DNA from: Acidimicrobiales bacterium
GTDB lineage: Bacteria; Actinomycetota; Acidimicrobiia; Acidimicrobiales; Palsa-688
NCBI GenBank assembly: GCA_036264135.1
Contig: DATARN010000008.1
Coordinates: 9,095 to 73,094 of the forward strand
Reading direction: 5' to 3'
Length of the DNA stretch: 64,000 nt
Position numbers and translations under genes: made by a program. The notes under the pieces are model-generated. The model was not told the DNA's origin, searched no databases, and saw only the letters and a program-made list of their open reading frames with translations. Shown here one piece after another: positions 1-27,591 of the stretch; within the stretch, counting starts at the first letter, position 1; each line of letters begins with the position of its first letter.

Positions 1-189
1 TGCCGGGATCTTGGACGTGTTGCCGGCGATGCCGCCGGCGGTGTCGAGGATGCGGTCGACGTTCCGCGAGGCGTCGTTGACGAACGCCATCAAGAGGGAC
101 AGCAGGACGATCACGACAAGACAGACCACCAGTCCCATGCCCAGCGTGATCCACCACATGGTGATGTGCTGTTGAGCCAATGCGAGCAT
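1..189 (-). CDS. small single-pass membrane protein, DUF948-like paralog (C-terminal part runs off the window edge)
   Basis: The reverse frame is open from nt 1 up to ATG at 189 (alternative ATG at 159): MLALAQQHITMWWITLGMGLVVCLVVIVLLSLLMAFVNDASRNVDRILDTAGGIAGNTSKIPA. It has an N-terminal TM helix followed by a helical segment with an I-x-G-N-T motif shared with its neighbours. The start lies 2 nt after the stop of the upstream paralog. It is absent from the ORF track because it is truncated. Confidence 0.45.
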   Translation of the reverse strand, partial: MLALAQQHITMWWITLGMGLVVCLVVIVLLSLLMAFVNDASRNVDRILDTAGGIAGNTSKIPA

Positions 190-191
190 TG

Positions 192-455
192 TCATCCGAA
201 TTTCGCCTCCAGTACGCCGCGAGCGGCAATGCAACATTCCGCGATGTCCTTCAATCCCGCGTTCACCTGAGGTACGTCACCGATGACGTTGGTGGCCAGC
301 CGGGTCAGCTCGAGTTGTTCGTCGATCGCCGCCGCCTGAACCGAAATCTGGCGAGCCAACTTCATGATCCACGAGACGAACACGACGACAACGCCGATGA
401 CCACGATCGCAAAGCCGAAGCCGACGTACCACCCAGTCAGTGCCACAGCGAGCAT
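192..455 (-). CDS. small single-pass membrane protein, DUF948-like paralog (87 aa)
   Basis: An internal ATG at 455 of ORF 192..512 is preceded by GAAGGAGGGGG (reverse complement of 462-472). The product is MLAVALTGWYVGFGFAIVVIGVVVVFVSWIMKLARQISVQAAAIDEQLELTRLATNVIGDVPQVN..., a TM helix plus an amphipathic helix. Confidence 0.6.
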   Translation of the reverse strand: MLAVALTGWYVGFGFAIVVIGVVVVFVSWIMKLARQISVQAAAIDEQLELTRLATNVIGDVPQVNAGLKDIAECCIAARGVLEAKFG

Positions 456-1429: not shown

Positions 1430-1897
1430 CTAGTACCGCCGGCGATGAACCGGAGGCGGGGTCTGCGGCCCGCTTCGTGTCTCAGGCTCGGCAAAGGTCT
1501 GCGTCGCCTCACGCCGGGCGGGCCCCGCCGCCGGGGCGGGCGCCGGCGCCGCGGCGGCGGCCGCCCGAGCGGGTGCCGGGGCGGCGGCCGCCCGAGGGGG
1601 TGCCGGAGCGGCGGCCGCCCGAGTGGCGGCGGCGCGAGCCGGTGCCGGACCGCCGCTGGTCGCCAGGCTGATAAGGCCGTGCAACGCGCCCTGGATGGCC
1701 CCGACATCCCTGGCAATTGCGCCTACGACCTCGGGGGCGGGCTTCACCTGACCGGCGATGCCGGTGACCATCCCCAGGATGGTGTCGAGCTCCCCGGTGA
1801 TCTGCTGGAGACTCACCGCCATGGAGATCAGCCATACGGCGGTACCCAGGACGAGGATCGTCGCGATGGCGATTGTGCCGATTGCAGCCGATGCCAT
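1430..1897 (-). CDS. small single-pass membrane protein, DUF948-like paralog with an Ala/Pro-rich tail
   Basis: The ATG at 1897 is preceded by GAAGGAG. The product is MASAAIGTIAIATILVLGTAVWLISMAVSLQQITGELDTILGMVTGIAGQVKPAP..., followed by a low-complexity AAAPAP tail. The extent of the tail is uncertain. Confidence 0.55.
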   Translation of the reverse strand: MASAAIGTIAIATILVLGTAVWLISMAVSLQQITGELDTILGMVTGIAGQVKPAPEVVGAIARDVGAIQGALHGLISLATSGGPAPARAAATRAAAAPAPPRAAAAPAPARAAAAAAPAPAPAAGPARREATQTFAEPETRSGPQTPPPVHRRRY

Positions 1898-1942: not shown

Positions 1943-2188
1943 TCACAGCAACTCTGTGATCGCAGCGCCGTAGGCGCCGACGCCCTGGCGGGCCACGCCG
2001 ACCAGACGTTGCGTTTGCAGAAGCTTGGGAATGGCATCAAGATTCCGGCTCAGCGCCGTGCCGTGCTCGATGATGTCATTTGCGTGCATCCGGATCTCTC
2101 CGACCGGCTTCATGGACCGGAACTCGAAGACGAACAAGATGATCGTTACGACCGCCAAAACGAGGTTGCCGATCCACCAAAGACCCAC
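1943..2188 (-). CDS. small single-pass membrane protein, DUF948-like paralog (81 aa)
   Basis: The GTG start at 2188 is preceded by AAGGGGGG 8 nt upstream. The product is MGLWWIGNLVLAVVTIILFVFEFRSMKPVGEIRMHANDIIEHGTALSRNLDAIPKLL..., which matches my recollection of DUF948 architecture (N-terminal TM helix plus a helical domain). Confidence 0.6.
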   Translation of the reverse strand: MGLWWIGNLVLAVVTIILFVFEFRSMKPVGEIRMHANDIIEHGTALSRNLDAIPKLLQTQRLVGVARQGVGAYGAAITELL

Positions 2189-2250: not shown

Positions 2251-2300
2251 CTGAAAAGAAAAGGGGCACGGTGGCGAACCACCGTGCCCCTTTCTTTTAC
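2251..2300. terminator. intrinsic terminator hairpin, bidirectional-looking, ending the 4368->2316 operon
   Basis: Perfect 14-bp stem AAGGGGCACGGTGG (2261-2274) with loop CGAA and CCACCGTGCCCCTT (2279-2292). It is flanked by an A-tract on the left (a T-tract on the minus strand) and TCTTTTAC on the right. It lies 24 nt downstream of the TAG at 2316. Confidence 0.7.
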
Positions 2301-2315
2301 TTCACTACTTCTTTC

Positions 2316-2984
2316 CTACGCCCCCGAACAGATCGGTCCGAGGACCGGGAGTACGGAGGCCACCTTGACCGGGTGATCGGCGCAGATGTCCTTCGCCTGC
2401 GTCAGGATCCCCCCGGCCAGGCCGGTGATGGTCCCGGTGTCGCCCTTGATGGCGACCACCAAGTTGTCGATGGTCGCTGCTTGGCCGTTGATCGTGGCGA
2501 TGATCGATCGGATCGTCGTCACGTCGGAGTTGACCCCGCTCAGACTGGCGTTGATGGAGTTGACCGAGGATCCGATCGTCCCAACCAGGCCTCCGATGGA
2601 GTGCACCGTCCCGTTGATCGACTGCGCGGTCTGCAGGATGCTCGTCACCGACGTGTTGATGCTTCCCACCGCGGTGAGGATCTGCCCAGCTTGAGCACTC
2701 AGCGGCTGGGCCGCATCGTTGATCTGCTTGGCAATGTTCTCCGTCTGGGTCAGTACCGGTAGTTCGGTGCTCGGGCAGTTGGCCAGGTTGTTCGGATCAC
2801 AGCCCGTCTGCAGGTGCTTGTTGGCACCCTGAACGGATCCCGTGATGTCGACAACCCGAGTCTGGATCTGCTGAGCCGCGGTCAGCGTTCGGGTCAACAT
2901 GATGACTGCGATGAGGGCCCAAACGATGACGATGGTCAGGATCACCCCCACCAGCCCTCTCTCGTCGTGGCTTCGTGGGGTCAT
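2316..2984 (-). CDS. type-II-like membrane protein with an extended Asn/Ser/Thr/Gly-rich heptad (coiled-coil) region and a 4-Cys cap (paralog A, 222 aa)
   Basis: The ATG at 2984 overlaps the stop of the upstream paralog (ATGA). The TM helix is LVGVILTIVIVWALIAVIML. Heptads run GSINTSV/TSILQTA/QSINGTV/HSIGGLV/GTIGSSV/NSINASL/SGVNSDV/TTIRSII/ATINGQA/ATIDNLV/VAIKGDT. Cys occur in GCDPNNLANC, DICADH and PICSGA. Confidence 0.7.
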   Translation of the reverse strand: MTPRSHDERGLVGVILTIVIVWALIAVIMLTRTLTAAQQIQTRVVDITGSVQGANKHLQTGCDPNNLANCPSTELPVLTQTENIAKQINDAAQPLSAQAGQILTAVGSINTSVTSILQTAQSINGTVHSIGGLVGTIGSSVNSINASLSGVNSDVTTIRSIIATINGQAATIDNLVVAIKGDTGTITGLAGGILTQAKDICADHPVKVASVLPVLGPICSGA

Positions 2985-3712
2985 GAGCAGCCCCTGTGCC
3001 CCTGGACGCCGGTGACGAGTGACGGGAGGTTGTCCACCAGGGTGACGACCGGGCCGTTGCAGATGCCCTTCAGCTGGACGTTGATGCCCGGCACCTGGCT
3101 GGATCCGACATTGTTGGTGTCGGCCCGGGCCGAGTTCAGGACGGTGTTGGCCGCCTCAACTCTCGGGAAGATGTTCTGGACACCGGTCTGGTTGGCACCG
3201 CACGCCCCCGGCGAGTTCGAGCACTGTCCGGCCGGGAGGTTGGCGGCGTTCAACGTGGCGTTGATGCTGCCGGCGGTGGACAACACGGTCTGGAGAACAC
3301 CCGAGGTGTTGACCAGTGACCCGGAGGTCACCACCAACGAGCTCGACGTGTCCTTCAGTGATGCGTCCACCGACACCAGGCTGGTGTTGATCGAGGTCAG
3401 GCCGCCGATGATGGCGGTGGCCTGACCGGGGATCGGCTTCAGGGCGGTATCGATGCTGGTCAGCGTGTCGCTCACGTTCTTGATCTGACCGGGGAGGGTC
3501 TGAACGTGGCCGCCGGCGCCCGACACTGCGGTGCTGGCGACGCCCAGGTTCTTGTTGATGTTGGCCAGGGAGTTGGTGATGAAGATCAGGTAGAAGACCA
3601 CCACCAGGACCACCACGGCGAGCAAGACGACCCACACCGTGAGCCACCGGCTCAGGTAGCGGGCTTGGTCGCGGTCGGCACTTTGGAGCCGGGTTGATGT
3701 TGCTGCAGCCAT
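2981..3712 (-). CDS. type-II-like membrane protein with an Asn/Ser/Thr-rich heptad region and a 4-Cys cap (paralog B, 243 aa)
   Basis: The ATG at 3712 is preceded by AGGAGG, which overlaps the upstream stop. The TM helix is WLTVWVVLLAVVVLVVVFYLIFI. Heptads run LTSINTS/LVSVDAS/LKDTSSS/LVVTSGS/LVNTSGV/LQTVLST/AGSINAT. Cys occur in GQCSNSPGACG, GICNG and RGCS. Confidence 0.7.
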   Translation of the reverse strand: MAAATSTRLQSADRDQARYLSRWLTVWVVLLAVVVLVVVFYLIFITNSLANINKNLGVASTAVSGAGGHVQTLPGQIKNVSDTLTSIDTALKPIPGQATAIIGGLTSINTSLVSVDASLKDTSSSLVVTSGSLVNTSGVLQTVLSTAGSINATLNAANLPAGQCSNSPGACGANQTGVQNIFPRVEAANTVLNSARADTNNVGSSQVPGINVQLKGICNGPVVTLVDNLPSLVTGVQGHRGCS

Positions 3713-3726
3713 TGCGCGCTCGCCTC

Positions 3727-4368
3727 CTAGCAGCCTGTACCGGCGGAGTTGCCGCCGAGGTCATGGTTGATGCATCCGCCGAACCTGAGCGCCGCGGTAA
3801 GGCCGGTGCTGCCACCGCCGACGATGACGCCGGTGTCACCCTTGATCTGCTGGGCCACGAGGACCGTCTTGTCCAGATCCTGGTTGATGATGACGACGCC
3901 ACTCTTGATCGAGTTGGCGACCGCCAGGATCGACGACGCCGTCGAGTTGATCCCGTTGGCGGTGCTGTTGATGGCACCGGCCGAGCCGTTGATCGTCTTG
4001 GCGGTTCCATCGATCGTGCTCGCCGAGCCGTTGATCGACTTGCCGAGATTGTCGATCGAGCCGGCCAAGTCGACGATCTGCGCCAGCTCACCCTGCAACG
4101 GCTTGGCCGTCGCCAGGATGGACGACGCCGTCTTGTTGGTCGCCGTCAACTGGAGGATCGAATCGGTGTTGTCATTGATGCCACGACCGGTCTTCTGGAT
4201 GGTCGCCGCCTTACCATTGATGGATTCTGCGGTCGATGCTGTCCTCTGGAGCAACACCACCGCGATCACCAGAACTACCAGGACGACAACCAGCAGTAAC
4301 CCGCTGCTTACCGCCTGACCAGTCTCGTCACGCCTGCGGCCTCTGGCCACCAAGCCCCCTTTCAACAT
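3727..4368 (-). CDS. type-II-like membrane protein with an Asn/Ser/Thr/Gly-rich heptad region and a 2-Cys cap (paralog C, 213 aa)
   Basis: The basic N-terminus ARGRRRDE is followed by the TM helix LLLVVVLVVLVIAVVLL. Heptads run SIDNLGK/SINGSAS/TIDGTAK/TINGSAG/AINSTAN/GINSTAS/SILAVAN/SIKSGVV. It shares an IKGDTG motif with paralog A. The true start may be GTG at 4350, which has AAAGGGGG upstream. Confidence 0.65.
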   Translation of the reverse strand: MLKGGLVARGRRRDETGQAVSSGLLLVVVLVVLVIAVVLLQRTASTAESINGKAATIQKTGRGINDNTDSILQLTATNKTASSILATAKPLQGELAQIVDLAGSIDNLGKSINGSASTIDGTAKTINGSAGAINSTANGINSTASSILAVANSIKSGVVIINQDLDKTVLVAQQIKGDTGVIVGGGSTGLTAALRFGGCINHDLGGNSAGTGC

Positions 4369-4506
4369 TGGGAAGAGTCGGGGAGGGCACGCAGGGCCTG
4401 CGGCCGTTTCCCCCTTGTAGTGCTTGTGCTGCTGGTACTCCGCTTCGTGGCTTTCCTACCTGGCATGGTGCTTGGAGATGAGAAGCCCGGATCGGTGTTC
4501 CGGCGC

Positions 4507-4536
4507 ACTGTATTCCAAGGGTGACATTTCAGGCAA
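4507..4536 (-). promoter_or_regulatory. candidate sigma-70-type promoter for the 4368->2316 operon
   Basis: On the minus strand: TTGCCT (reverse complement of 4531-4536), an 18-nt spacer, then TACAGT (reverse complement of 4507-4512). This fits the actinobacterial TANNNT -10 box. It rests on pattern match only. Confidence 0.2.
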
Positions 4537-4641
4537 GTATGACCCGATTCGTGCAGTTTGCGCCGGAAGACCCGCCGCAGAGCGAACCGTAAGACGTTTC
4601 CCCAGGTACAGCATCCCCCAAAAGGTGGAGCGCATGGGGGA

Positions 4642-4664
4642 TGACTAGTTACTTCTGACTAGTC
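4642..4664. promoter_or_regulatory. two copies of the palindromic AT-rich motif TGACTAGT, 14 bp apart (candidate operator)
   Basis: TGACTAGT occurs at 4642-4649 and again at 4656-4663. The second copy extends to the perfect 8-bp palindrome GACTAGTC. The motif stands out in GC-rich DNA, in the 413-bp gap between the hypE stop and the start of paralog C. Confidence 0.3.
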
Positions 4665-4781
4665 ACAGCCGTTTGCGACGAACCGGCCGAACGCGCACGG
4701 GCCCCGGGCGGCCCGGGCGCGACGAAACAACCGCGGCGCCAGCCCGATGCCGGCGCGGAGGACAGAAGTCCGGAAAAGGGG

Positions 4782-5903
4782 TCAGCAGATGCGCGGCAGC
4801 GGATCGCCGACGAGCATGTCGACGATGCGAGTGCCGCCGAACGGCGTGACCTGCACCACCAGGCCGGGGGGATCGGCGACCATCTCCCCCACCACCGCGG
4901 CGTCGGCGCCGAGCGGGTCGGCCCGCAGCGCGGCGACGGCGGCCGCCGCCTCGGCGGCGGGCACGATCGCCACGAACTTGCCTTCGTTGGCCACGTACAA
5001 CGGGTCGATACCCAGCATGTCGCACGCCCCGCCGACGACGGCCTTGATGGGCATGGCCACCTCGTCGAGGCGAACGGTGAGGTTGCAGTCCCGCGCCAGC
5101 TCGTTGCACACCGTGCCCAGGCCGCCTCGGGTGGCGTCACGCAACCACCGGGTGCCAGGGGCGGCGGCCAGTAAGACCTCGACCAGACCGCTGAGGGCGG
5201 CGGTGTCGCTCTCGACATAGGCATCGAGGGCCAGGTCGCCCCGGGCCAGCATCACCGCGGTGCCGTGGTCGCCGATGGAGCCCGACACGATCACGGCGTC
5301 TCCTGCCTGCACCCGCGTGGCGGTCAGATCCCGACCCGGCGGGATGAGCCCGACGCCGGCGGTGTTGATGTACACCCCGTCGGCGGCGCCGCGGTTGACG
5401 ACCTTGGTGTCGCCGGTGACGATCGACACCCCGGCGCGGAGTGCGGCCGCGGCCATATCGGCGACCACCTCGCGGAGCGACTCGATGGCGAATCCCTCTT
5501 CGATCACGAAGGCGGCCGAGAGAGCAAGGGGCCGGGCTCCCATCATGGCTAGGTCGTTGACTGTGCCGTTGACCGCCAGGTCGCCAATCGACCCACCGGG
5601 GAAATGCAGCGGCTTCACCACGAACGAGTCGGTCGAGAAGGCCAGCCGCTCACCGGTGGGCAGCGTCAGCACGGCGGCGTCGGTCTGCAGGCCCGAAGTC
5701 GAGTGGGCGAACGCCGGCAGGAACACCTGATCCAACAGCGCCGCCGACGCCTTGCCGCCCGCCCCGTGGGCCGAGGTGACGACCTCGTCGAGCAGCCGCG
5801 GCTTGCGCCGGCGGAAGGCCTCGATACGGTCGAAGACCGCTTCCTCCCGCTCCCGCTCCGGACCTTGGGCCGGCTCGGCGACCTCGTCGGTGACGTCGGT
5901 CAT
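4782..5903 (-). CDS. hypE: [NiFe]-hydrogenase maturation protein HypE
   Basis: It has an AIR-synthase-like fold signature (FSTDSFVVKPLHFPGGSIGDLAVNGTVNDLAMMGA) and the C-terminal PRIC motif. The start is set at the ATG at 5903 (MTDVTDE...), which overlaps the upstream stop by 4 nt. Confidence 0.9.
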   Translation of the reverse strand: MTDVTDEVAEPAQGPEREREEAVFDRIEAFRRRKPRLLDEVVTSAHGAGGKASAALLDQVFLPAFAHSTSGLQTDAAVLTLPTGERLAFSTDSFVVKPLHFPGGSIGDLAVNGTVNDLAMMGARPLALSAAFVIEEGFAIESLREVVADMAAAALRAGVSIVTGDTKVVNRGAADGVYINTAGVGLIPPGRDLTATRVQAGDAVIVSGSIGDHGTAVMLARGDLALDAYVESDTAALSGLVEVLLAAAPGTRWLRDATRGGLGTVCNELARDCNLTVRLDEVAMPIKAVVGGACDMLGIDPLYVANEGKFVAIVPAAEAAAAVAALRADPLGADAAVVGEMVADPPGLVVQVTPFGGTRIVDMLVGDPLPRIC

Positions 5904-6583
5904 TGGAAGCTCCCTTCGCGCCCGTTGGGCGTGGACTGGGCCATCAGGTTGCGCTGCACGACCGACCACAGCTCGAACACCAGCGCGTCCTGCGACTCTT
6001 GGATGCGGTGGACGCTGTCGGAGTGCACGACCAGGCAAAAGTCGACCGTGTCGTTGTTGGCCATGGCCCCGCCGGCGTACCCGGCCAGGCCGATGGTCAG
6101 CAGCCCACGGTGCTTGGCCTCGGCGAAGGCCTTCATGACGTTTTCCGAGTTGCCGCTGGTGGACAGGCCCATGGCCATGTCTCCTGACCGGGCGTGGGCG
6201 ATCAGCTGGCGGGAGAAGACCAGCTCGAAGCCCACATCGTTGGCCAGAGCGGTCAGCACCGCCCGGTCGTCAACCAGCGGCCACGCCGGCAGCGGCCGGC
6301 CGCCGATCGGGTGGCGGAACATTTGGGCCGTCATCTCGGCGTCGGTGGCACTGCCGCCGTTACCGAAGGTGTACAGCCGGCCGCCGGCGGCGAAGCGCGA
6401 GGCCATGTCGGCGCCGAGAGCGGCGATGACGGGCTCCCACTCCTTCAGGGTGGCCAGCTGGAGCCGGCGGCTCTGCGCCATCTTGGCCCGGGCCGACGCA
6501 GCCAGGTCGACGAGGAGCGACTCGGAGTCGCGCTCCTCGGAATCGATGAACGGGTAAAGGAAGTTGGTGGGTTCGGCGGTCAT
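5900..6583 (-). CDS. SIS-domain protein (GmhA/phosphoheptose-isomerase-like), hydrogenase-cluster associated
   Basis: Motifs YTFGNGGSATDAEM and LSTSGNSENV are present. The ATG at 6583 overlaps the upstream stop (ATGA). Confidence 0.8.
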   Translation of the reverse strand: MTAEPTNFLYPFIDSEERDSESLLVDLAASARAKMAQSRRLQLATLKEWEPVIAALGADMASRFAAGGRLYTFGNGGSATDAEMTAQMFRHPIGGRPLPAWPLVDDRAVLTALANDVGFELVFSRQLIAHARSGDMAMGLSTSGNSENVMKAFAEAKHRGLLTIGLAGYAGGAMANNDTVDFCLVVHSDSVHRIQESQDALVFELWSVVQRNLMAQSTPNGREGSFQ

Positions 6584-7329
6584 ACCCGGCCCTCCAGGGA
6601 GGAAATCGCGGTACCGGCATGGACCAGGAGAAGGTCGCCCGGGCCCGGCCTGCCGACCAGTGTCGTGTCGATGGTCTCCGCCTTGCCACCCGCCAGGACG
6701 ACCGCGGTGTCGTCTTCCAGTACCGAGACCACCTCGACCACCCGCCCCTCGTCGGAGCAGGTGATGCACACTTCGTCGGTGCACGCCGCCGGCTCGGCCA
6801 GCAGGCCGGGATGCTCGAACACCACGTGCACCAGCTCCCAGAGGAGGTGGTACAGCAGCACGTATCCGCCCGAGCTGCCGGCGATGTCGGAGTCGACACC
6901 GTCGACCCACAACAGGTGGTCTGCGGAGCTGGTGGGCGGGTGGGGGCCGGCGCCGATGCACACGCTGGTCAATCCCCAGGCGTCCGTCCGGCGCAGCAGC
7001 GACGCGATGGTCTCGTCGGAGGCGGGACCGAGGGCGACCACTATGTCGCCCGGTCGGGCCAGCAGGCGCAACGAGGCGAGCAGGTCGTCGTCGTCAACGA
7101 AGATGGCCGGCAGGGCCCGTTTTCCCATGATCACCGGATGGACGAACTCCACCGCCACATGGCGGCCGTGGGCCGGCCAGGACGGCGAGACACACCACAT
7201 GGTGGCCCCAGCGGCGAAACGCCGGGCCAGCGCCAAGGCGGCGGCCGCCAAGTTGTCCGAGACCGACTCGAGAGCGGAAAAGTCAATTGGCAGCTCCCGC
7301 TCTGCGGACACGACTGGATTGGGGACCAT
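6580..7329 (-). CDS. fusion protein: degenerate SIS-like N-domain plus HypC/HupF-like C-domain
   Basis: The N-terminal ~180 aa align by eye with the SIS paralog downstream (RRFAAGATMW..., LLYHLLWELVHVVFEH) but lack GNGGS. The C-terminal ~65 aa read CITCSDEGRVVEVVSVLEDDTAVVLAGGKAETIDTTLVGRPGPGDLLLVHAGTAI, which resembles HypC/HupF OB-fold chaperones. Confidence 0.6.
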   Translation of the reverse strand: MVPNPVVSAERELPIDFSALESVSDNLAAAALALARRFAAGATMWCVSPSWPAHGRHVAVEFVHPVIMGKRALPAIFVDDDDLLASLRLLARPGDIVVALGPASDETIASLLRRTDAWGLTSVCIGAGPHPPTSSADHLLWVDGVDSDIAGSSGGYVLLYHLLWELVHVVFEHPGLLAEPAACTDEVCITCSDEGRVVEVVSVLEDDTAVVLAGGKAETIDTTLVGRPGPGDLLLVHAGTAISSLEGRV

Positions 7330-7364
7330 GGCAAGTCCTTTCGACCCCACGGAACAGGCCTCTG

Positions 7365-9677
7365 TCACTGTACGTCCGGAGGGCCCGCTAGCACCGCCGA
7401 AGCCACGACTGCCTGGCCGAGGGCCAGGCCACCGTCGTTGGGCGGGACGATGCGGTGGCTCAACACGGTGAAGCCGCGGGCCTCGAGCTCCCGGCGGGCC
7501 AGCCGGAGCAATAACACGTTCTGGAACACCCCTCCCGAGAGGGCGGCCCGCCGGATGCCGCGCCGCTCCCCCGCCGCGGTGGCGAGCCGTCCGACCAGAT
7601 CGGCCACCGCCCGATGGAAACCGGCGGCGACGGCCCCCGCGGGCACGCCGGCCCGCAGGTCGGCGACGATCGCCCGGAGGACGGGAGCGGCCGGGATGAC
7701 ACCGTCGGCGACCACGAAGGAGTAGGGCCGAGCCTGGTCGAGAAAGCCAGCGGCCATGGTCTCCAGCTCGATGGCCGCCTGGGCCTCGTAGGAGACGCGG
7801 TGGCGTACCCCCAGCAGGGAGCTGACGGCGTCGAACAGACGGCCCATGCTCGAGGTGGGTACGCACTGGAAGTCCCGCTCCAGCTGGCGGCGCAGGGCCA
7901 CTCGTTCGGCGGCGTCGGTCGCCTGCACGGGGGCGAGATCGGGATCCCAGTCGATGCCCGCCGCCCACAGGTGGGCGAGGGCGGCTCGCGACGGGCGCTT
8001 GATGGTGGCGTCGCCGCCGGGCAGGGGAACGTAGCCGAGGTGGGCGACCCGGTCGTACGCCCGGTAGCCGGCGACCAGCACCTCCCCGCCCCAGATGGCG
8101 CCGTCGGGGCCGTATCCGGTGCCGTCGAAGGCGAACCCGATGACCTGCTCATCGGCGGCGACACCGTGTTCGGCCATCACCGCCGCCACATGGGCGTGGT
8201 GATGCTGGACAAGTGACAGCGCGCCGGTGGCGTGGTCCTCCGCCCAGTTTCGGGTGTGGTAGCCGGGATGCAGGTCGGCCGCCAGGTGATCGGGGGCGAT
8301 CCGGTAGATGGCCCGGAACTGAGCCGTGGACCGCTCGAATGCGGCCAGCGTGTCGGGGCTGCCCATGTCGCCGATGTGCTGGCTCATCCAGGCGTCGGTG
8401 CCCGACGCCAGGCAGAAGGTGTTCTTCAGCTCGCCGCCCACCGCGAGCACCGGCGCCACCGGGAACGGCAGCCGCAACGGCAGCGGGGCGTAGCCACGCG
8501 AGCGGCGCACCGGCAACTCGACACCGTCGACCATCTGCACCACCGAGTCGTCGCAGGGCACGTGGATCGGCCGGTCGTGCAGAAGCCAGCAGTCGGCCAG
8601 CGCGCCGAGCCGCCGGCGGGCGTCGTCGTCCTGGTAACAGATCGGTTCGTCGGTGATGTTGCCGCTGGTCATGACGAGGACGTCGGGCACGGGCGGGCCG
8701 GCGACGCCGGGCACGGGGTTGAACAGCAGGAAGTGCAGCGGCGCGTACGGGAGCATGATCCCGATCATGGGATTGCCGGGGGCCACGAGGGGCGACAGCG
8801 GCGAGCCGGGGCGCACGGCAAGAAGCACGATCGGGTGCTGGGGGGACAGCAGCAACGCCGCCTCGTCGTCGTCGATCACCGCCAGGCTGCGGGCCACGTC
8901 CAGGTCGCGGACCATGACGGCGAAGGGCTTGTCGGCCCGGCCCTTGCGCCGCCGCAGCAGGGCGACGGGTTCGTCTCGGCCGGCGTCACAGGCGATATGG
9001 AACCCGCCGAGCCCCTTGACCGCCACGATCTGGCCAGCGTGGAGGGCGTCCTGAGCGCCGGCCACGGCGGCGTCGGTGCCGTCGATGCGGCCCTCGGCCG
9101 ACTCCAGCCACAGCCGGGGTCCGCAGTCGGCGCAGGCGAGGGGCTGGGCGTGAAAGCGCCGGTCGGCGGGGTCATGATATTGGGCCGCGCAGGCCGGACA
9201 GAGGGTAAAGGAGGCCATTGTCGTATTGGGCCGGTCGTACGGCAATCGGATAGTGATGGTGAAGCGGGGGCCGCAGTTGGTGCAGGTGATGAAGGGATAC
9301 CGGAACCGTCGGTCCTGGGGATCGAACAACTCCCGGAGGCAGTCGTCGCACAACGCGGCGTCGGGCGCCACGAATGTCCGCACCGCCGTGCCGGTCCGGC
9401 TGTCCACGATCCGGAAGCCCGCTTCGCCGACCGTCGGAATCGACGTCGCCTGCACCGTGTCGACCCGCGCCAGCGGCGGCGCGTCACGACGGAGCCGTTC
9501 GGCGAACGCTTCGACCGCCGCCGGCGCCCCCTCCACCTCGACGAAGACACCGTCGGTGTCGTTGCCGACGTGGCCGGCCAGCCCCGACTCGGTGGCCAAG
9601 CGGTGAACGAACGGCCGGTACCCGACCCCCTGAACGACGCCGCTTACCCGTATCCGGGTGCGCGCCGATGTGGTCAT
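7365..9677 (-). CDS. hypF: carbamoyltransferase HypF
   Basis: It has an acylphosphatase N-terminus (RVSGVVQGVGYRPF), two Zn-finger pairs (CDDCLRELFDP...CTNCGPRF and CPACAAQYHDP...CADCGPR), and YrdC-like and Kae1-like regions. The start is set at the ATG at 9677. Confidence 0.92.
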   Translation of the reverse strand: MTTSARTRIRVSGVVQGVGYRPFVHRLATESGLAGHVGNDTDGVFVEVEGAPAAVEAFAERLRRDAPPLARVDTVQATSIPTVGEAGFRIVDSRTGTAVRTFVAPDAALCDDCLRELFDPQDRRFRYPFITCTNCGPRFTITIRLPYDRPNTTMASFTLCPACAAQYHDPADRRFHAQPLACADCGPRLWLESAEGRIDGTDAAVAGAQDALHAGQIVAVKGLGGFHIACDAGRDEPVALLRRRKGRADKPFAVMVRDLDVARSLAVIDDDEAALLLSPQHPIVLLAVRPGSPLSPLVAPGNPMIGIMLPYAPLHFLLFNPVPGVAGPPVPDVLVMTSGNITDEPICYQDDDARRRLGALADCWLLHDRPIHVPCDDSVVQMVDGVELPVRRSRGYAPLPLRLPFPVAPVLAVGGELKNTFCLASGTDAWMSQHIGDMGSPDTLAAFERSTAQFRAIYRIAPDHLAADLHPGYHTRNWAEDHATGALSLVQHHHAHVAAVMAEHGVAADEQVIGFAFDGTGYGPDGAIWGGEVLVAGYRAYDRVAHLGYVPLPGGDATIKRPSRAALAHLWAAGIDWDPDLAPVQATDAAERVALRRQLERDFQCVPTSSMGRLFDAVSSLLGVRHRVSYEAQAAIELETMAAGFLDQARPYSFVVADGVIPAAPVLRAIVADLRAGVPAGAVAAGFHRAVADLVGRLATAAGERRGIRRAALSGGVFQNVLLLRLARRELEARGFTVLSHRIVPPNDGGLALGQAVVASAVLAGPPDVQ

Positions 9678-9712
9678 GGGGGGAAGTCTACGAAGGCGAC
9701 TCCCGGAAAAGG

Positions 9713-10726
9713 CTAAACGGTTTCCAGTGCCCGGTCGTAGCGGCCGGTTGCCGCCTCGCTGTTGCACTTGCTGCGCAGCAACAGCACTTCTTGGGCCGGC
9801 TCGCGGTTGGTGGCCTCGCCACTCCAGGTGCGCAGGGCGTCGTCCTGCAGGGCCCGGCCGTAGGAGAAGGTGAGCGTCCAGGGATGGGGTCCCAACTTGA
9901 CCATGGCGTCAAGGTGCTCGGTGGCCACCACCGACGACTGGCCGCCGGAAAGGAAGGCGATGCCGGGAACGCTGGGGGGCACGCAGTCGCGCAGGCAGCG
10001 GACGGTCGCCTCGGCCACCTCCTGGACCGATGACCCCGGCCCCTTGGATCCGGAGATCACCATCGACGGCTTCAGGACCATGCCCTGGAGATCGATGCTC
10101 GCCTCGCCGAGGGCGTAGAACACCTCGCGCAACGTCTGGTGGGTCACGGCGTCGCTGCGGGCCAGATCGTGGTCGCCGTCCATCAGCACTTCCGGTTCCA
10201 CGATAGGGACCAGGCCGCCCTCTTGGCAAAGGGCGGCGTAGCGGGCCAGCGCCCGGGCGTTGGCCAAGATGGCGTAGCGGGTGGGAGTGGTCGCGCTGAT
10301 GGTGATGACGGCGCGCCACTTGGCGAAGCGGGCGCCGAGCTCGTAGTACTCCGCCACCCGCTCGCGTAGCCCGTCGAGACCCTCGGTGATGGTCTCCCCC
10401 GGGTGTCCCGCGAGGGGCTTGGCGCCGGTGTCCACCTTGATCCCCGGCAGGATCCCCTTGCCGGCCAGAACCTCCGGAAACGGGGTCCCCTCGGCGGTGG
10501 CCTGGCGGATCGTCTCGTCGTAGAGAATTACGCCGCTGATGTAGTTCTCGAGCCCGGGGGCGGTGAGCAACGTCTCGCGGTACTGGCGACGGAGCTCTTC
10601 CGTTGACGGGATTCCCAGCGCCGCGAAGCGCTTGGTGATGGTCCCCGAGCTTTCGTCTGCGGCCAGGATGCCCTTGCCCGGCGCCACCATGGCGGCGGCG
10701 TTGGCATGCAACGTTTCGTTCGTCAT
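9713..10726 (-). CDS. fba: fructose-bisphosphate aldolase, class I
   Basis: The N-terminal GKGILAADESSGTITKRF signature of class I aldolases is present. Length is 337 aa. Confidence 0.85.
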   Translation of the reverse strand: MTNETLHANAAAMVAPGKGILAADESSGTITKRFAALGIPSTEELRRQYRETLLTAPGLENYISGVILYDETIRQATAEGTPFPEVLAGKGILPGIKVDTGAKPLAGHPGETITEGLDGLRERVAEYYELGARFAKWRAVITISATTPTRYAILANARALARYAALCQEGGLVPIVEPEVLMDGDHDLARSDAVTHQTLREVFYALGEASIDLQGMVLKPSMVISGSKGPGSSVQEVAEATVRCLRDCVPPSVPGIAFLSGGQSSVVATEHLDAMVKLGPHPWTLTFSYGRALQDDALRTWSGEATNREPAQEVLLLRSKCNSEAATGRYDRALETV

Positions 10727-10750
10727 CGCGTGATCGTCGCGCGAAATCGC

Positions 10751-11722
10751 TTAGGGGGCAACCTGCAGATCGCGGCCCTGCGAGCGCCGCGCCAGCAGCA
10801 GGTGATAGAGGAAAATGAGCTGCACGACCGCCAGCGGTTCGCTGCGCGCGTCCCCCTCGATAACGCCGAGCGAGGCGGGCAGCTCGTCGCCGATGCCGAG
10901 CCCCGCCCAGATCGCCTCCTCGACCTGCCGGGTCTTCTCCCGGGAGGCGTAGGCGTGGACGTGGAGGGCGTCGACCGGCTTGCCGTCGTCGTCACGAGCC
11001 AGCTTGAGGTGGATGGCCTCGCGGCGGTCGGCGGTGAGCACACCGGACAGATCGGGATGGGGGGCGGTGGGACGCAGGAGGATGGTCGCGCTCAGGAGTT
11101 CAGCCTCGTCTTGCGGGCGCTCCTCGATCGGGCCGAATCGCACGACCACATCGGCCCAGGCGCGCTGCGGGCGGATAAATGCTGCCGACTCCGGCTCGCG
11201 ACGCTTCAGGTCCTCCCGAACCTGCTCCTCGGTATAACCCCGGTCCCGTGTGTCCCGCCGAATTTTCCAGCCATAACGGGTTTCCTCCGGCGGGTCGAGG
11301 TACACGCTCAGGTCGAAGCAGGCCCGTGAGAGCCGGCTGTAGAGCGGCAGTAGCCCTTCGACGATGACAAAGTCTCGCGGCTCGAACAGCACCGGGCGGT
11401 CCAGCGTGCCGGTGAGGTGGTTGTACACCGGCTTCAAGATGGGCTCGCCCATGGCCAACAGCTGGAGGTGCTGCTCCATCACCTCCATGTAATTGCACGC
11501 CGGGTTGAGCGGGGTGAACGGCAGACCCCTGCGTTCGTGGCGATCGTAGCGGTGATAGTCGTCGACGCAAATCGAGCTGATCCGGTCCGTCCCTATGGCC
11601 GCCAACAGGCCGCGGGTGAGCGTCGTCTTCCCGGCTGCGCTGTCGCCCGCGATGGCGATCATGACCGGCCGGTGGGCACTCGGTGGTCCCGCTCGCCGCA
11701 TCACGACCCGTTTGTGAGTCAC
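10751..11722 (-). CDS. prk: phosphoribulokinase
   Basis: P-loop IAIAGDSAAGKTTL is present, and the PRK/uridine-kinase family body includes DDYHRYDR and LKPVYNH. The start could be 11701 instead. Confidence 0.85.
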   Translation of the reverse strand: MTHKRVVMRRAGPPSAHRPVMIAIAGDSAAGKTTLTRGLLAAIGTDRISSICVDDYHRYDRHERRGLPFTPLNPACNYMEVMEQHLQLLAMGEPILKPVYNHLTGTLDRPVLFEPRDFVIVEGLLPLYSRLSRACFDLSVYLDPPEETRYGWKIRRDTRDRGYTEEQVREDLKRREPESAAFIRPQRAWADVVVRFGPIEERPQDEAELLSATILLRPTAPHPDLSGVLTADRREAIHLKLARDDDGKPVDALHVHAYASREKTRQVEEAIWAGLGIGDELPASLGVIEGDARSEPLAVVQLIFLYHLLLARRSQGRDLQVAP

Positions 11723-11807
11723 GGCGCGCTAGAAGCACACGACGGGGTCATGGGCGAACGGTATGGACCGGTCGTTGCGGTGCCATCCCCCTCCGGGGGG
11801 AGACGCC

Positions 11808-12518
11808 GTGGGAGGACATAGTCTTCATGCCGTGACTGACCAGACCCCGGCGGCCGAACCGCGGACCGGACCCATCCGGCTGCTGCTGGTCGACGACCAC
11901 CGAATGGTCCTCGACGGGCTCACCGCCATGCTGCGGCCCCACGCCGACGTGGCGACGGTCGTGGCCAGCACCACCGAACCGGCGGAGGCTCGGCGGCTGG
12001 CGGTCGACGCCCGCCCCGACGTGGCCCTGCTCGACGTGCGCATGCGGGCCGCCAGCGGGCTCGACCTGTGCGAGGAGCTGCTCCGCGTGGCGCCCGGCCT
12101 CAAGGTGGTGCTCCTCACCGTCTACGACGACGAGCAGTACCTGTTCCAGGGGCTTCGAGCCGGGGCGTCGGGGTACCTCACCAAGCAGGTCGTGGCCGAG
12201 GAGCTCGTGACGCACCTGCAGCGGGTGCTGCAGGGCGAAATTGTCATCGACGCGTCGCTGGCCGGACGGGTCGCGCTGTCGGCCGCCCGCCTGCACCGCG
12301 GCGAGTTCTGGCCGGGCGCTCATCTCGGGCTGTCGCAGCGGGAGAGCGAGGTCCTGGAACTGATGGTCCACGGCAACTCCAACCGGGCCATCGCCCACCG
12401 CCTGGTGCTCGGCGAGGAGACGGTGAAAACCCACGTGCGGTCGATCTTCCGCAAGCTGGACGTGACCGACCGGACCCAGGCGGTCGCCTTCGCCCTCCGT
12501 GAGGGCGTCTTCCTGTGA
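11808..12518 (+). CDS. NarL/LuxR-family response regulator
   Basis: The receiver domain reads IRLLLVDDHRMVLDGL...DVALLDVRM and the C-terminal HTH reads LSQRESEVLELMVHGNSNRAIAHRLVLGEETVKTHV. The start was chosen at GTG 11808 (GGGGGGAG 5 nt upstream). The ORF track start is 11763 and GTG at 11832 is also possible. Confidence 0.8.
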   Translation: MGGHSLHAVTDQTPAAEPRTGPIRLLLVDDHRMVLDGLTAMLRPHADVATVVASTTEPAEARRLAVDARPDVALLDVRMRAASGLDLCEELLRVAPGLKVVLLTVYDDEQYLFQGLRAGASGYLTKQVVAEELVTHLQRVLQGEIVIDASLAGRVALSAARLHRGEFWPGAHLGLSQRESEVLELMVHGNSNRAIAHRLVLGEETVKTHVRSIFRKLDVTDRTQAVAFALREGVFL

Positions 12519-13738
12519 CCGCCCCCGAACCGGGCGCCGACGAGCGCGCCTGGTCCGGCCTGCTGCGTCAAATCATCGAGCTGAGCACCGAGGAACGCAA
12601 TCTGCGCCAGGTGCTGCGCCGCGTTGCCGATTTCGTCGTGGCCACAACCGGCGCCGACGTGTGCTTCGTCCACGTCGTCGACCGCGAGGCGCGCGAGATC
12701 GTGCTGATGGGGGCCACTCCCGAGCAGTTCGACCAGCTGAGCGGCACCATCCGCCTCCGCATCGGCGAGGGGGTGGCCGGTTGGGTCGCGCAGTTCGCCA
12801 AGCCGGCGGTGGTCCGGGACAAGTGGAGCGACAAACGCTACGTCTACATCCCCGCCCTGAAAGGCGAGGAGTTCAACTCCATGCTGTCGGTGCCGCTCCT
12901 GCGCCCCGGCGGGGTGGTGGTCGGAGTCCTCAACGTTCACTCCCGCCAGGCCGACTACTTCTCGGCCGCCGACGCCGCCCGGCTGGACGAGGTGGCCAAC
13001 GTGCTGGCCGGCATCGTGGAAAACGCCGTGCTGTACGACCGGCTGGCCACGCGGGAGGCGGAACTGGCCCGTTTCGCCGCCCAGACGATCGAGATGCAGG
13101 AACTGGATCGTCGCCAGATCGCGGCCAACATCCACGACGGGATCAGCCAGCGACTGGTGAGTGCCTGGTATCACCTGCGCGCCGCCCGGTCGCTGGCCGC
13201 CGAGGCAGCGGGCCGGACATTGGCTGCCGATCAGTCGGTGCTCGGCGAGATCGATGCCACCGAGGTCTTGCTGTCCGACGCCTTAGAGGAGGCTCGAAAC
13301 GCCATCGTCGGGCTGCGCCCCGCCATTCTCGACGACCTCGGGCTCAACGCCGGCCTCACCAGCCTGGCCACGTCGCTCGGCGGCGACACCGAGATCGAGC
13401 TGGATCTCCAGGCCAGCCAGCTTCCCGCCCACATCGAGACGGCGCTGTATCGGATCTCCCAGGAGGCGTTGCAGAACGTCATGAAGCACGCCGACGCGCA
13501 GCATGTCCGCATCGCCCTGCACCACACCGTGGACGACCGGGTCATCCTCACCATCAGTGATGACGGCATCGGGTTTGACCCGGGGGCCGCCGGCGACTCG
13601 ATGACCTACGGCCTGCGAGGCATGCAGGAGCGGGCGGCGTTGATCGGCGCCCAGCTGGAACTGCGCTCCCGGCGGGGCGACGGCTCGACGGTCATCGTGA
13701 GCCTTGGAGGAGGAGGATCTGCACCCCCTCGGGGGTGA
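12515..13738 (+). CDS. GAF-domain sensor histidine kinase (HisKA_3 type)
   Basis: It has an N-terminal GAF-like region (FVHVVDREAREIVLMG...VAGWV), the H-box IAANIHDGISQRL and an HATPase region (ISDDGIGFD...GLRGMQERA). The GTGA overlap with the response regulator stop indicates coupling. Confidence 0.85.
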   Translation: MTAPEPGADERAWSGLLRQIIELSTEERNLRQVLRRVADFVVATTGADVCFVHVVDREAREIVLMGATPEQFDQLSGTIRLRIGEGVAGWVAQFAKPAVVRDKWSDKRYVYIPALKGEEFNSMLSVPLLRPGGVVVGVLNVHSRQADYFSAADAARLDEVANVLAGIVENAVLYDRLATREAELARFAAQTIEMQELDRRQIAANIHDGISQRLVSAWYHLRAARSLAAEAAGRTLAADQSVLGEIDATEVLLSDALEEARNAIVGLRPAILDDLGLNAGLTSLATSLGGDTEIELDLQASQLPAHIETALYRISQEALQNVMKHADAQHVRIALHHTVDDRVILTISDDGIGFDPGAAGDSMTYGLRGMQERAALIGAQLELRSRRGDGSTVIVSLGGGGSAPPRG

Positions 13739-14615
13739 GGTCGAAGTGGTCCGGCACCCCGGTGATCGACCGGACCAGCAGCAGGGCAGTGGGGGTCAGG
13801 TCGCCCGACGCGTGGGCCACCAGATGCCAGGGCCGGTCGAGCGGCGTCCCGGGGCAGGGCCACACCGCCACCGACCCGCTGATGATGCGGTCGGCCACGG
13901 CGTCCAGGGAGATGAGGGCGATGCCGAGGCCGGCGACGACCGCCTGCTCGACGGCGCCGTTGGACCCAAGCAACATGGTCCGAGGCTGGATGCCGAGATC
14001 GGCCAGCAGCGCGTCGGCGGCGTTGCGGGTGCCGGACCCCGCCTCGCGCATCAGCCACGTCTGATGGGCCAGGGCGGCGACGGGGACGGGACCATCGGCG
14101 CGGGGCGGCCCGACGAGGACCAGTTGGTTGGGCGCGGTGGCCAGCACGACGACCGGGGCCGCGGCCGGCGGTCGGCCGGCGATCACCAGATCGGCGCTGT
14201 GGTCGCGCAGCGCTTCCCAGACCAGGCTGCGGTTGCCGACCTGCACCGCCACGTCGGCGCTCGGGTGCTGTTGGCGGAACACCGCCAGCAGCGGCGGCAG
14301 CAGCCGCTCCGCCGCCGTCGTGACCGTCACCAGCTGGACGATTCCCTGGTCGGGCGCCTCGAGGCTACGGGCGCTACGAACGGCCAGGTCCAGCAGGCCC
14401 AGGCTCTGGCGGACCTGGTCGGCGAAGGCGGCGCCGGCCGGGGTGACGCGTAGGCCCCGCCCCTGGCGGACGACGAGGGAGATGCCCAATTCGCGTTCAA
14501 GGCTCGAGACCGCCGCCGACACCGACGGCTGGGAGACCACCAACCGCTCGGCGGCGGAGCGGACCGACGCCGTCTCGGCCACCGCCAGGAAGGTCCGCAA
14601 CTGGGTCAGGGTCAC
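13692..14615 (-). CDS. LysR-family transcriptional regulator
   Basis: The N-terminal HTH reads MTLTQLRTFLAVAETASVRSAAERLVVSQPSVSAAVSSLE. It converges on the kinase with a 47-nt overlap of the 3' ends. A CbbR-like role is only inferred from context. Confidence 0.8.
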   Translation of the reverse strand: MTLTQLRTFLAVAETASVRSAAERLVVSQPSVSAAVSSLERELGISLVVRQGRGLRVTPAGAAFADQVRQSLGLLDLAVRSARSLEAPDQGIVQLVTVTTAAERLLPPLLAVFRQQHPSADVAVQVGNRSLVWEALRDHSADLVIAGRPPAAAPVVVLATAPNQLVLVGPPRADGPVPVAALAHQTWLMREAGSGTRNAADALLADLGIQPRTMLLGSNGAVEQAVVAGLGIALISLDAVADRIISGSVAVWPCPGTPLDRPWHLVAHASGDLTPTALLLVRSITGVPDHFDLTPEGVQILLLQGSR

Positions 14616-14699
14616 CGGCCGAAACCTACCCTCGTTGGCCGGCCGGAGCCCCGAAGGGGTGGTCGGTTACCATGGCCGCGCCTCCCTCATGGACCGGTC

Positions 14700-15851: not shown

Positions 15852-15898
15852 CCGTTGACCAGGTCTCGTACGCGGGTCACTTGATCCCCTCTCGGGAC

Positions 15899-17017: not shown

Positions 17018-17097
17018 GGCCGCGTTGGTGCTCCCACTTCACCACCCTTGCTAGCTGCTCACCGCGGGGGTGTCAAGTAGCGCCGCGTCGGAGGCGG

Positions 17098-18162: not shown

Positions 18163-18608
18163 TTCGACCCGTTGCCCTTCGACCCGTTGGCCTGATACCG
18201 CTCGCCGTGCGGCTTGTCCACGGCGTAGGCATGCACGGTGTAGGCGATGTGGCGGTCGTTCAACTCGGTGCGGTCCAAGCGGAACCCGGGCTCCTCGGCC
18301 GGCCGGTTGACGATGAAGTCCAAGCCGGTGGTCTGGCGGTGGGGGCTCGGGTCATACCCCACCACCTTGATGTAGTGGTTGGGGTAGGCCTCGCGGCACT
18401 TGTTCATCTCGAAGACGACCGCCGAGGCGTCCTTGATGTCGAACATCGGCAGGTCCCACATCTCCCACAGCGGATTGCGGGGATGGGGGTCGTCGGTGAA
18501 CTCGATGGCCATCGCCCAGCCCAACTCGATGCAGTATTGGACTTGGAGGCGGATCTCGTCGTCGGTCAGTTCGGGAAGGAAGGAAAAGCATCCCTGGGTA
18601 ACTTTCAT
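18159..18608 (-). CDS. cbbS: RuBisCO small subunit
   Basis: The sequence [31 protein letters not shown]...DDPHPRN..WEMW..PMFD is typical of the red-type small subunit. Confidence 0.9.
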
Positions 18609-18619
18609 AATCGCTCCTC

Positions 18620-20185
<1,566 letters not shown>

Positions 20186-25093: not shown

Positions 25094-25103
25094 CGCCGGT
25101 TGC

Positions 25104-25697: not shown

Positions 25698-25797
25698 GGG
25701 CCCCCCTCCGGGGTCAAAAGTTCGTCGCACCAACCGCGTACAGAACATGCCGGGTTCCCGGCGCAGGACACGCCGGGAACCCCGATGCTACTTCTCG

Positions 25798-27585: not shown

Positions 27586-27591
27586 GCTTGA

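Follow-up and report, generated by a model that had tools for sequence, protein, structure and literature searches.

In the 64,000-nt stretch of DNA analysed here (contig DATARN010000008.1 of an Acidimicrobiales bacterium; hereafter, the window), three adjacent minus-strand genes, designated A, B and C, encode paralogous proteins with an N-terminal transmembrane (TM) segment and a long heptad-repeat rod. With somewhat better than even confidence, we propose that A, B and C form an extracytoplasmic, heteromeric coiled-coil stalk of about 20–25 nm, within an undescribed envelope module linked to trace-gas metabolism. The N-in signal of B and C, the even numbers of cysteines, the covarying lengths and the complementary cores of the three proteins together suggest such a stalk. 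Topology, heteromeric assembly, stoichiometry, wall-spanning reach and the role in trace-gas metabolism are what we infer from these data, a structural role in the envelope (as a stalk, spacer or scaffold) being the most likely one.

According to the proposed model, A, B and C would be single-pass proteins with their C-terminal 170–200 residues outside the cytoplasmic membrane, and would come together in register as a parallel, heteromeric coiled-coil rod, probably of 1:1:1 stoichiometry. This assembly would consist of a membrane-proximal helix of about 20–28 residues, a hinge, a rod of about 115–120 residues (approximately 17 nm) and disulfide-closed C-terminal loops, and helix arithmetic (0.15 nm per residue) gives a predicted reach of about 20–25 nm, which is on the scale of the actinobacterial wall. 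In place of the salt bridges of ordinary coiled coils, Asn, Ser and Thr would mediate the contacts between the helices. Partners of the trio would be five short paralogues and a PsbP-like protein with a membrane anchor, all encoded in a nine-gene block with its own putative promoter and operator, and the stalk may be deployed together with, and in some genomes separately for, hydrogenase, CO-dehydrogenase and Calvin–Benson–Bassham (CBB) modules.

For the comparative analyses, one genome per GTDB species was scanned, which yielded 108 relatives, and counts out of 80 loci refer to the best 80 of these 108. All 80 loci come from metagenome-assembled genomes (MAGs) of Actinomycetota, with no isolate among them, and represent at least four classes, the carriers being Acidimicrobiales, Mycobacteriales, Pseudonocardia, Propionibacteriales, Solirubrobacterales, Thermoleophilaceae, Nitriliruptorales and Egibacteraceae. 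The family originates from soil and desert MAGs.

Organization of the trio and architecture of its proteins

The open reading frame (ORF) coordinates confirmed the three minus-strand genes of the initial annotation, i.e., A (3727–4368, 213 aa as an ORF), B (2981–3712, 243 aa) and C (2316–2984, 222 aa), as well as their junctions, a 14-nt gap between A and B and an ATGA overlap between B and C. The translational coupling postulated for the trio was also upheld, as tables of lengths and spacings built from tblastn frames showed that these junctions are kept in relatives (median distance of 12 nt from A to B and of −1 nt from B to C). Nearly all of the 80 loci have the three genes side by side (ABC, BCA or CAB), so the trio does co-occur as a block, and because it is conserved in hundreds of metagenomic homologues, it does not represent chance ORFs. 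The true start of gene A is very probably the GTG at 4350, six codons downstream of the start of the annotated ORF (which gives a 207-aa product), since a conserved AAGGGGG Shine-Dalgarno sequence lies 4 nt upstream of it and the homologues begin with MARGRRR. At the 3' end of gene C, the hairpin described earlier was found at 2260–2293 (minus strand; AAAGGGGCACGGTG-gttcgc-CACCGTGCCCCTTT), with a stem of 14–15 bp (15 pairs are scored) and a 6-nt loop; being flanked by an A-run and a T-run, it is terminator-like in both directions.

The view that the three proteins are paralogues was supported by pairwise and profile comparisons, with a clear relationship of A and C and a distant position of B. 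In BLASTP, A and C are similar over their full length (31% identity, E-value 8e-19), while B matches C with an E-value of 3e-6 and A with an E-value of 0.05. The comparison of profiles (hhalign), for which the alignments were made from related loci, gave 100% for A-C, 98.8% for B-C and 97.1% for A-B. Each protein contains a single, strongly hydrophobic 19-residue N-terminal segment (mean hydropathy of 3.1–3.4), consistent with the one TM helix previously assigned to it, and the three share a common layout, i.e., a post-TM helix of about 20–28 residues, a break, a rod of about 115–122 residues and a C-terminal C-x13-23-C loop. In A, an Arg-rich N-tail and the TM segment (residues 22–40) are followed by a predicted hinge at about 61–72, a predicted continuous helix at 70–183 and the loop C199...C213. 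In B, the divergent paralogue, the TM segment occupies residues 28–46, and two predicted helices (97–158 and 178–218), with a C-x6-C loop between them, lead to a C-terminal pair, C218...C242, which is invariant across the B family. In C, the TM segment (residues 11–29) is followed by a C-x7-C loop at 63–71, a rod at about 78–200 and the C-terminal pair C201...C219. The IKGDTG motif reported for A and C was confirmed in both sequences.

The uninterrupted heptad register, originally counted as 8–13 heptads, extends over about 14 heptads in A, 13 in C and 16 in B, where it continues across Pro-containing breaks. Hydrophobic residues recur with a period of 3.45–3.5 residues, with a peak power of 100–128 against 40–46 (standard deviation of 10–11) for shuffled sequences. 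The claim that charged residues are nearly absent holds in that they are few overall (9–14% of residues), but is somewhat overstated for A; Asn, Ser, Thr and Gly together make up 35–39% of residues in A, B and C. AlphaFold2 (AF2) models of A and B, based on alignments of 66–69 sequences, contained a single helix at 70–183 in A, with a predicted local distance difference test (pLDDT) score above 90 over about 70 residues (approximately 100–170), and the two helices of B mentioned above. A beta-roll or beta-solenoid was considered for the I-N-G-S/T-A heptads by analogy with the seven-residue 'Hep_Hag' repeats of YadA heads, and was ruled out by this high-confidence continuous helix and the periodicity of 3.5. 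Foldseek searches with both AF2 models against PDB gave no match with an E-value below 6; long helices in isolation are poor in fold information.

Within the register, the three families differ in their core positions. Position a is Ala (68%) in the A family, Ser, Asp or Asn in the B family and Val (49%) or Ala (31%) in the C family, while position d is Ile (77%), Leu (87%) and Ile (88%), respectively; position e is Asn in A (42%) and C (40%), and position g of B is Thr, Ile or Val. By general coiled-coil packing rules, such distinct and complementary a-layers are the pattern expected of an obligate hetero-oligomer, and B would self-associate poorly because of its polar a-position. The trio seems to be a naturally occurring coiled coil that is built from three different chains with hardly any charge, in which the choice of partner would be set by core size (Ala, Ser or Val at a) and by Asn-Thr contacts. 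In this respect it resembles laminin-type and designed ABC heterotrimers, where three chains differ in core size and only the mixed assembly packs well; there is, however, no homology, the latter are eukaryotic or synthetic, and their partners are chosen largely by charge, which is almost absent here.

The lengths of the three ectodomains also change together. Measured from the TM segment to the stop codon in 63 loci, they covary with Spearman coefficients of 0.67 (A-B), 0.73 (A-C) and 0.43 (B-C), and matched short sets (about 148, 183 and 173 residues for A, B and C, respectively) and matched long sets (263, 269 and 255) were found in different lineages. The number of repeats varies in seven-residue steps, with insertions of whole heptads among A and B homologues.

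The location of the rods was assessed from charges and cysteines. The initial annotation had placed the bulk of each protein outside the cell by a basic N-terminus and the positive-inside rule, and this part of the claim stood for the B and C families and was only weakly supported for A. Counting Lys and Arg, B is N-in (2.4 vs 0.8; 57 sequences vs 2), as are C (37 sequences vs 5) and the PsbP-like protein F of the same block. The even numbers of cysteines were confirmed as well (two in A, four in B and four in C; the originally given 4, 4 and 2 are right in coordinate order), and the rule extends to the homologues, as even counts were found in 69/69 A, 66/66 B and 54/54 C proteins (189 in total). 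Two cysteines are present in 61 of the 69 A homologues and none in the other 8, four in 47 of the 54 C homologues, among which an odd number never occurs, and cysteines are gained or lost as pairs. This even number and paired loss fits disulfides and hence an extracytoplasmic location.

Several observations weigh against the proposed stalk. The positive-inside signal of A is weak (3.1 vs 2.75), and the small proteins D, G and H of the block carry Lys and Arg after the TM segment, i.e., the opposite signal, so some of the block's proteins may be oriented towards the cytoplasm. The TM segments are followed by small residues (STA/E, SLA/N), where signal-peptide cleavage instead of anchoring may take place; the rod would lie outside either way. 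The predicted template-modelling (pTM) scores of the A and B models are low (0.32–0.35), which is expected as isolated rods were modelled. The covariation of lengths is inflated by shared ancestry and weaker for B-C, which makes it supportive and not decisive, and the C protein of Pseudonocardia exceeds A and B in length by about 70 residues. Finally, about 45% of loci have no trace-gas genes within 10 kb, e.g., locus L015, which lies beside atpC and murA.

Nine-gene block and its association with trace-gas genes

The initial annotation regarded a link between the trio and the neighbouring hydrogenase genes as speculative; in our comparison this association turned out to be recurrent and paralogue-specific, and to extend to CO dehydrogenase and RuBisCO clusters. 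In 81 non-redundant loci inspected within a 10-kb radius around the trio, hydrogenase, hyp or HoxF-like genes were present in 31, CoxL/D/E/F genes in 11 (the CoxL representative has the form-I AYRCSFR motif) and CBB genes in 12. At least one of these three sets was found in 45/81 loci, and in 27 of the 43 loci that span at least 15 kb. By a rough estimate, such genes with their 10-kb flanks cover about 2–3% of a genome, so the enrichment is large, though related genomes share synteny. At least eight arrangements were recognized, including positions between hypE and hypA, between hhySL and hypCD, upstream of hhySL, and beside coxLFDE, cbbLSX or a HoxF-like gene.

In six MAGs the trio is present in two or three copies (L032/L040/L085, L034/L057, L049/L052, L044/L048, L036/L069 and L014/L077), and it is the context (hyp, cox, cbb or another one), rather than the genome, by which these copies cluster, with agreement of the A and B trees, and of the C tree where C was recovered. 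In BP_132, for example, L032 lies by hyp genes, L040 by cox genes and L085 elsewhere; in Bin 95, L034 lies by hyp and L057 by cox genes, and in Bin 132, L052 lies by hhy and L049 by cbb genes. The differing arrangements and the grouping of copies by context speak against an association by inherited synteny alone, and the clustering by context indicates that duplications of the trio are old and that each lineage keeps to one module.

The assumption that the trio is the whole unit was not borne out, since it heads a nine-gene block that reaches beyond the region annotated initially and off the left end of the window. The same nine genes were found on contigs with close homologues, among them L005, a JGI contig that is identical to the window and continues beyond its position 1 (window coordinate = 9153 − L005 coordinate). 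Behind the trio follow gene D (1943–2188, minus strand), encoding an 81-aa protein of a TM segment and about 55 helical residues that resembles the TM-proximal part of A, and gene E (1430–1897, minus strand), encoding a 155-aa protein whose TM segment is followed by a short helical segment and a Pro/Ala/Arg-rich tail, and which resembles B. Gene F (552–1319) lies on the plus strand and encodes a 255-aa protein composed of an acidic N-tail, an RRR motif, a TM segment, a Pro/Thr/Ser linker and a PsbP-like domain. Gene G (192–455, minus strand; 87 aa) encodes a TM segment and a helix and has a promoter-like site at 512–484; gene H (1–189, minus strand; 90 aa) has its first 63 codons in the window, and gene I (85 aa), followed by hypA, is located beyond the left edge of the window. 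The low-complexity tail of E (PAPARAAATRAAAAPAPPRAAAAPAPARAAAAAAPAPAPAAGPARRE...) makes up its C-terminal half, and the length of E ranges from about 115 to 155 aa among relatives.

The five small single-pass proteins D, E, G, H and I, each with a TM segment and 50–60 helical residues, are related to each other and to the regions of A or B next to the TM segment, as hhalign gave 97.9% for D-H, 94% for G-H, 94.6% for E-I, 95% for both B-E and B-I, and 89% for A-D. In relatives, D has 81 aa, E about 140–155 aa, F about 235–255 aa, and G, H and I 85–105 aa. The PsbP-like domain of F in the window scores 22.9 bits against a cutoff of 23.5 (families PF01789 and PF18933); among 25 orthologues, PsbP was found in 18 (best E-value 7e-7) and PsbP_2 in 7, and the best PDB profile match is the cyanobacterial PsbP 2xb3 (E-value 0.003). 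In tblastn, F was detected within 10 kb of the trio in about 55 of the 80 loci and the small proteins (e.g., D) in about 40. Outside the trio the order of genes is variable, with D and E before or after the trio and G-H-I on either strand, whereas the gene set persists.

Own transcription signals of the unit, as proposed earlier, are supported by prediction, i.e., by a promoter-like pair upstream of A and the terminator-like hairpin after C. A conserved non-coding region (4490–4668, minus strand) lies in the 430-nt spacer between hypE and A. It includes the promoter-like pair (−35 TTGCCT at 4536–4531 and −10 TACAGT at 4512–4507, with an 18-nt spacer), a CCCCC/GGGGG hairpin and, at 4642–4665, two copies (TGACTAGTCA-type) of the palindrome (T)GACTAGTCA. 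Within the whole window ACTAGTCA occurs three times, always in this region, against 0.21 occurrences expected. The region is kept in close relatives, even in L001, where the upstream gene is other than hypE, while the palindrome (the ACTAGT operator motif) is confined to the closest clade and is no family-wide feature. Rfam gave nothing in the window. The G+C content of the block is 0.60–0.65, against about 0.70, and its value at third codon positions (GC3) is 0.84–0.89, as in the neighbouring genes; in view of this similarity of GC3, a foreign origin deduced from the low G+C content was rejected, and the dip is accounted for by amino-acid composition.

In the window, the block sits between hypE and hypA, in a region encoding a [NiFe] hydrogenase, hypF, a hypC-like gene, hypE, RuBisCO, CbbX, phosphoribulokinase and aldolase; because the CBB genes adjoin the hydrogenase, the window represents a chemolithoautotrophy island. 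The hyp cluster (4782–9767, minus strand) contains hypF, genes of a 249-aa HupF/HypC-family protein (6580–7329) and of a SIS_2-domain protein (5900–6583), and hypE; no hypD was found among these hypF-hypE genes, and hypA and hypB come only after the nine-gene insertion (L002, L005). At 9713–20095 a form-I RuBisCO large subunit (18620–20095), a CbbX-type AAA protein, phosphoribulokinase, a class-I aldolase, a triple-PAS protein and a PadR-YceI fusion are encoded. The hydrogenase genes (22216–28638, minus strand) encode a 348-aa small and a 595-aa large subunit, and the N-terminus of the small subunit (HhyS) is devoid of a twin-arginine signal, which agrees with the Tat-less character noted initially. 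They are followed by genes of NifU-like, DUF5947 and DUF6084 proteins, neighbours which we take to be typical of the group 1h [NiFe] hydrogenase, and by a 546-aa ORF without a Pfam match at E ≤ 1e-5. Two HAD fusions, one joining a fatty-acyl reductase (NAD_binding_4/Sterile) with HAD and the other HAD with an acyltransferase, are located at 34663–37023 and 46501–47916, and may be involved in storage-lipid or wax-ester metabolism.

Two other genomic contexts should be mentioned. In L001, the sole close relative with the block outside a hyp cluster, a 621-aa gene (7604–9469) with a weak match to a Cas12f/TnpB-type domain lies directly upstream, a hint that mobile DNA can move the block to other sites. 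In L013–L027, which represent one Acidimicrobiales clade, a block of the order D-E-A-B-C follows a gene of a NuoF/HoxF-like flavoprotein (Complex1_51K, NADH_4Fe-4S; e.g., L019, 6745–8322), and a gene of a CooC/ParA-like NTPase is often near.

Family assignment and alternative explanations

As anticipated, no characterised family fits the trio, for which no above-threshold match was obtained in Pfam, NCBIfam, PHROGs, PADLOC or PDB. Scans of all nine proteins of the block with the first four of these collections likewise gave nothing above threshold, the near-threshold PsbP match of F being the only one of its kind, and no homologue was found in the plasmid collection. Literature searches on DUF948, on the group 1h hydrogenase with PsbP and on hhyL gene clusters yielded no account of these genes. 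An exhaustive profile search retrieved 564 clusters (at 50% identity) among 1.84 billion representatives; ten of the clusters were looked up, and all were metagenomic and unnamed except a 2727-aa NACHT protein of the midge Chironomus riparius (P0427), a strong match whose ten stretches aligned with the A-family profile are almost certainly a repeat-composition artefact and not homology.

Three families which the initial annotation had listed as potential alternatives received no support. For the signalling hairpin of methyl-accepting chemotaxis proteins (MCP), the sole MCPsignal (PF00015) match was that of C (E-value 0.39, 11 bits against 34.6), and the 'MCP' names of homologues in JGI records are automatic. 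Mce-associated proteins are spoken against by the lack of any MlaD/MCE (PF02470) match in Pfam and of YrbE or MceG neighbours among the conserved clusters. As for phage tail fibres, none of the nine proteins matched PHROGs, and the neighbours are hyp, hhy and cbb genes. The C homologues bear weak Laminin_II (PF06009) marks. Trimeric autotransporter adhesins, whose stalks (SadA; 2wpr, 2yo2) are similar in their polar-core, Asn-rich heptads, differ in having the YadA anchor and head; no YadA anchor, head or stalk domain was found with Pfam, the only PDB matches were weak ones to SadA fragments, and the proteins described here have an N-terminal TM segment and monoderm or actinobacterial hosts. 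The PDB matches outside the designed proteins discussed below are to long coiled coils (the Mce1C needle, SlaB 8qox, SadA fragments and chemoreceptors), and the PDB sequence and profile matches are driven by heptad composition. We place the trio outside any described family, close in kind to known membrane-anchored coiled-coil stalks.

The proteins could also build a higher-order alpha-helical barrel or tube (e.g., A2B2C2), acting as a wall conduit for a hydrophobic molecule or gas like the Mce/PqiB/LetB needles, which we consider unlikely. The best PDB profile matches of the A family are designed alpha-helical barrels, i.e., sc-apCC-6 (8qae, E-value 1.6e-6), CC-Type2-IL-Sg (6g68, 6g69) and CC-Hex3, parts of A have small or hydrophobic residues at positions a, d, e and g, and the block is associated with enzymes of gaseous substrates. 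The same direction is indicated by the weak matches to the Mce1C needle helix (8fed_C, E-value 0.0026) and to the coiled-coil tail of ZorA (the only PADLOC match, that of A, with 16.9 bits, below threshold), and by the label 'MlaD' which JGI pipelines give to some B homologues. These matches, however, stay below the family thresholds, follow heptad composition and find no structural counterpart in Foldseek; Asn at e and Ser or Thr at g would make the lumen polar, and the block includes no MCE domain, permease or ATPase. The Mce-type needle (e.g., Mce1A–F, 8fed) shares with the trio the principle of side-by-side paralogous chains forming a long, envelope-spanning parallel helix bundle, but it differs in its MCE domain, YrbE and MceG partners and six chains, against three chains with polar surfaces here. 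Less probable still is that each protein works alone or as a homo-oligomer, either as a hydrophilic, late embryogenesis abundant (LEA)-like protectant against stress and desiccation or as a division protein of the DUF948/YoxC type, with the clustering due to tandem duplication only. A very polar, uncharged surface and the soil and desert origin of the MAGs would suit the former, and for the latter speak the weak DUF948 (PF06103) matches of A and C (E-values of about 1e-3 to 2e-3), the 'YoxC' label of some homologues in JGI, and the N-terminal TM segment followed by a helical segment that is shared with YoxC and with FacZ of S. aureus. The matches reach 19.0 (A) and 18.5 bits (C) against a gathering threshold of 37.2, with none for B or for D–I, and DUF948 proteins differ from the trio in being about 90–150 aa long, encoded by single genes and found mostly in Firmicutes. 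Moreover, distinct cores, a fixed gene order with overlapping stops and starts kept across classes, covarying lengths and a B core unsuited to self-association argue against independent proteins.

It is very improbable that the rods lie in the cytoplasm and serve as a membrane tether or scaffold for the Tat-less hydrogenase or the CO dehydrogenase. A precedent for this exists in HucM of the Huc hydrogenase (PMC10017518), which is likewise a membrane-associated coiled-coil stalk encoded with an atmospheric-H2 hydrogenase, and the paralogue-specific embedding of the block in hyp/hhy and cox clusters, the HhyS N-terminus and the Lys and Arg residues following the TM segments of D, G and H would be in line with it. 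HucM is, though, cytoplasmic, homotetrameric and part of the enzyme, while the proteins described here appear to face outward: by the positive-inside rule, B and C have their rods on the outer side, as F has its PsbP-like domain, which is preceded by a Pro/Thr linker; the always even cysteines, lost in pairs, point to disulfides and not to ligands, and RuBisCO needs no membrane tether. We assign a marginally lower probability yet to the trio serving an S-layer or sheath as its membrane anchor or stalk, in the way SlaB serves SlaA in Sulfolobus, with the gene of the lattice protein at another place. SlaB (NF040788) is the best named family match of C (32.6 bits, E-value 4e-8), C also weakly matches the S-layer structure 8qox_B of S. 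acidocaldarius (E-value 0.022), and both systems have a membrane-anchored extracellular rod rich in Ser, Thr and Asn. Nevertheless, the threshold is 700 bits, only the coiled-coil part (model positions 308–390) is aligned, and no candidate lattice protein is present in the block; SlaB is an archaeal homotrimer with a C-terminal anchor and beta-sandwich domains, whereas here there are three chains with N-terminal anchors and no globular domains.

Implications of a proposed envelope module for trace-gas metabolism

The oxidation of atmospheric H2 and CO by soil Actinomycetota is a globally important sink and a survival strategy in deserts and starved soils. The enzymes involved are known structurally, and little is known of what else the cell needs to use them. 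The occurrence of the block inside or next to hyp/hhy, cox and cbb clusters of several actinobacterial classes, with separate paralogous copies beside different modules of one genome, leads to a testable idea, namely that an envelope component co-evolves with trace-gas enzymes. For protein science, the heteromeric stalk proposed here would be a rod whose length changes in heptad steps, and does so in step across three chains.

A more specific role is conceivable, though we hold it to be rather improbable: the nine-gene block would serve atmospheric trace-gas metabolism as a dedicated accessory in the envelope, in the form of an uncharged coiled-coil assembly that spans the wall, and separate copies of ancient duplications would belong to the high-affinity hydrogenase, to the form-I CO dehydrogenase and to the CBB/RuBisCO module. 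If so, the accessory might act as a conduit for gas or hydrophobic molecules, or as an outward-facing organiser above the docking sites of the enzymes, and the block would add a component not seen before to the aerobic scavenging of H2 and CO.

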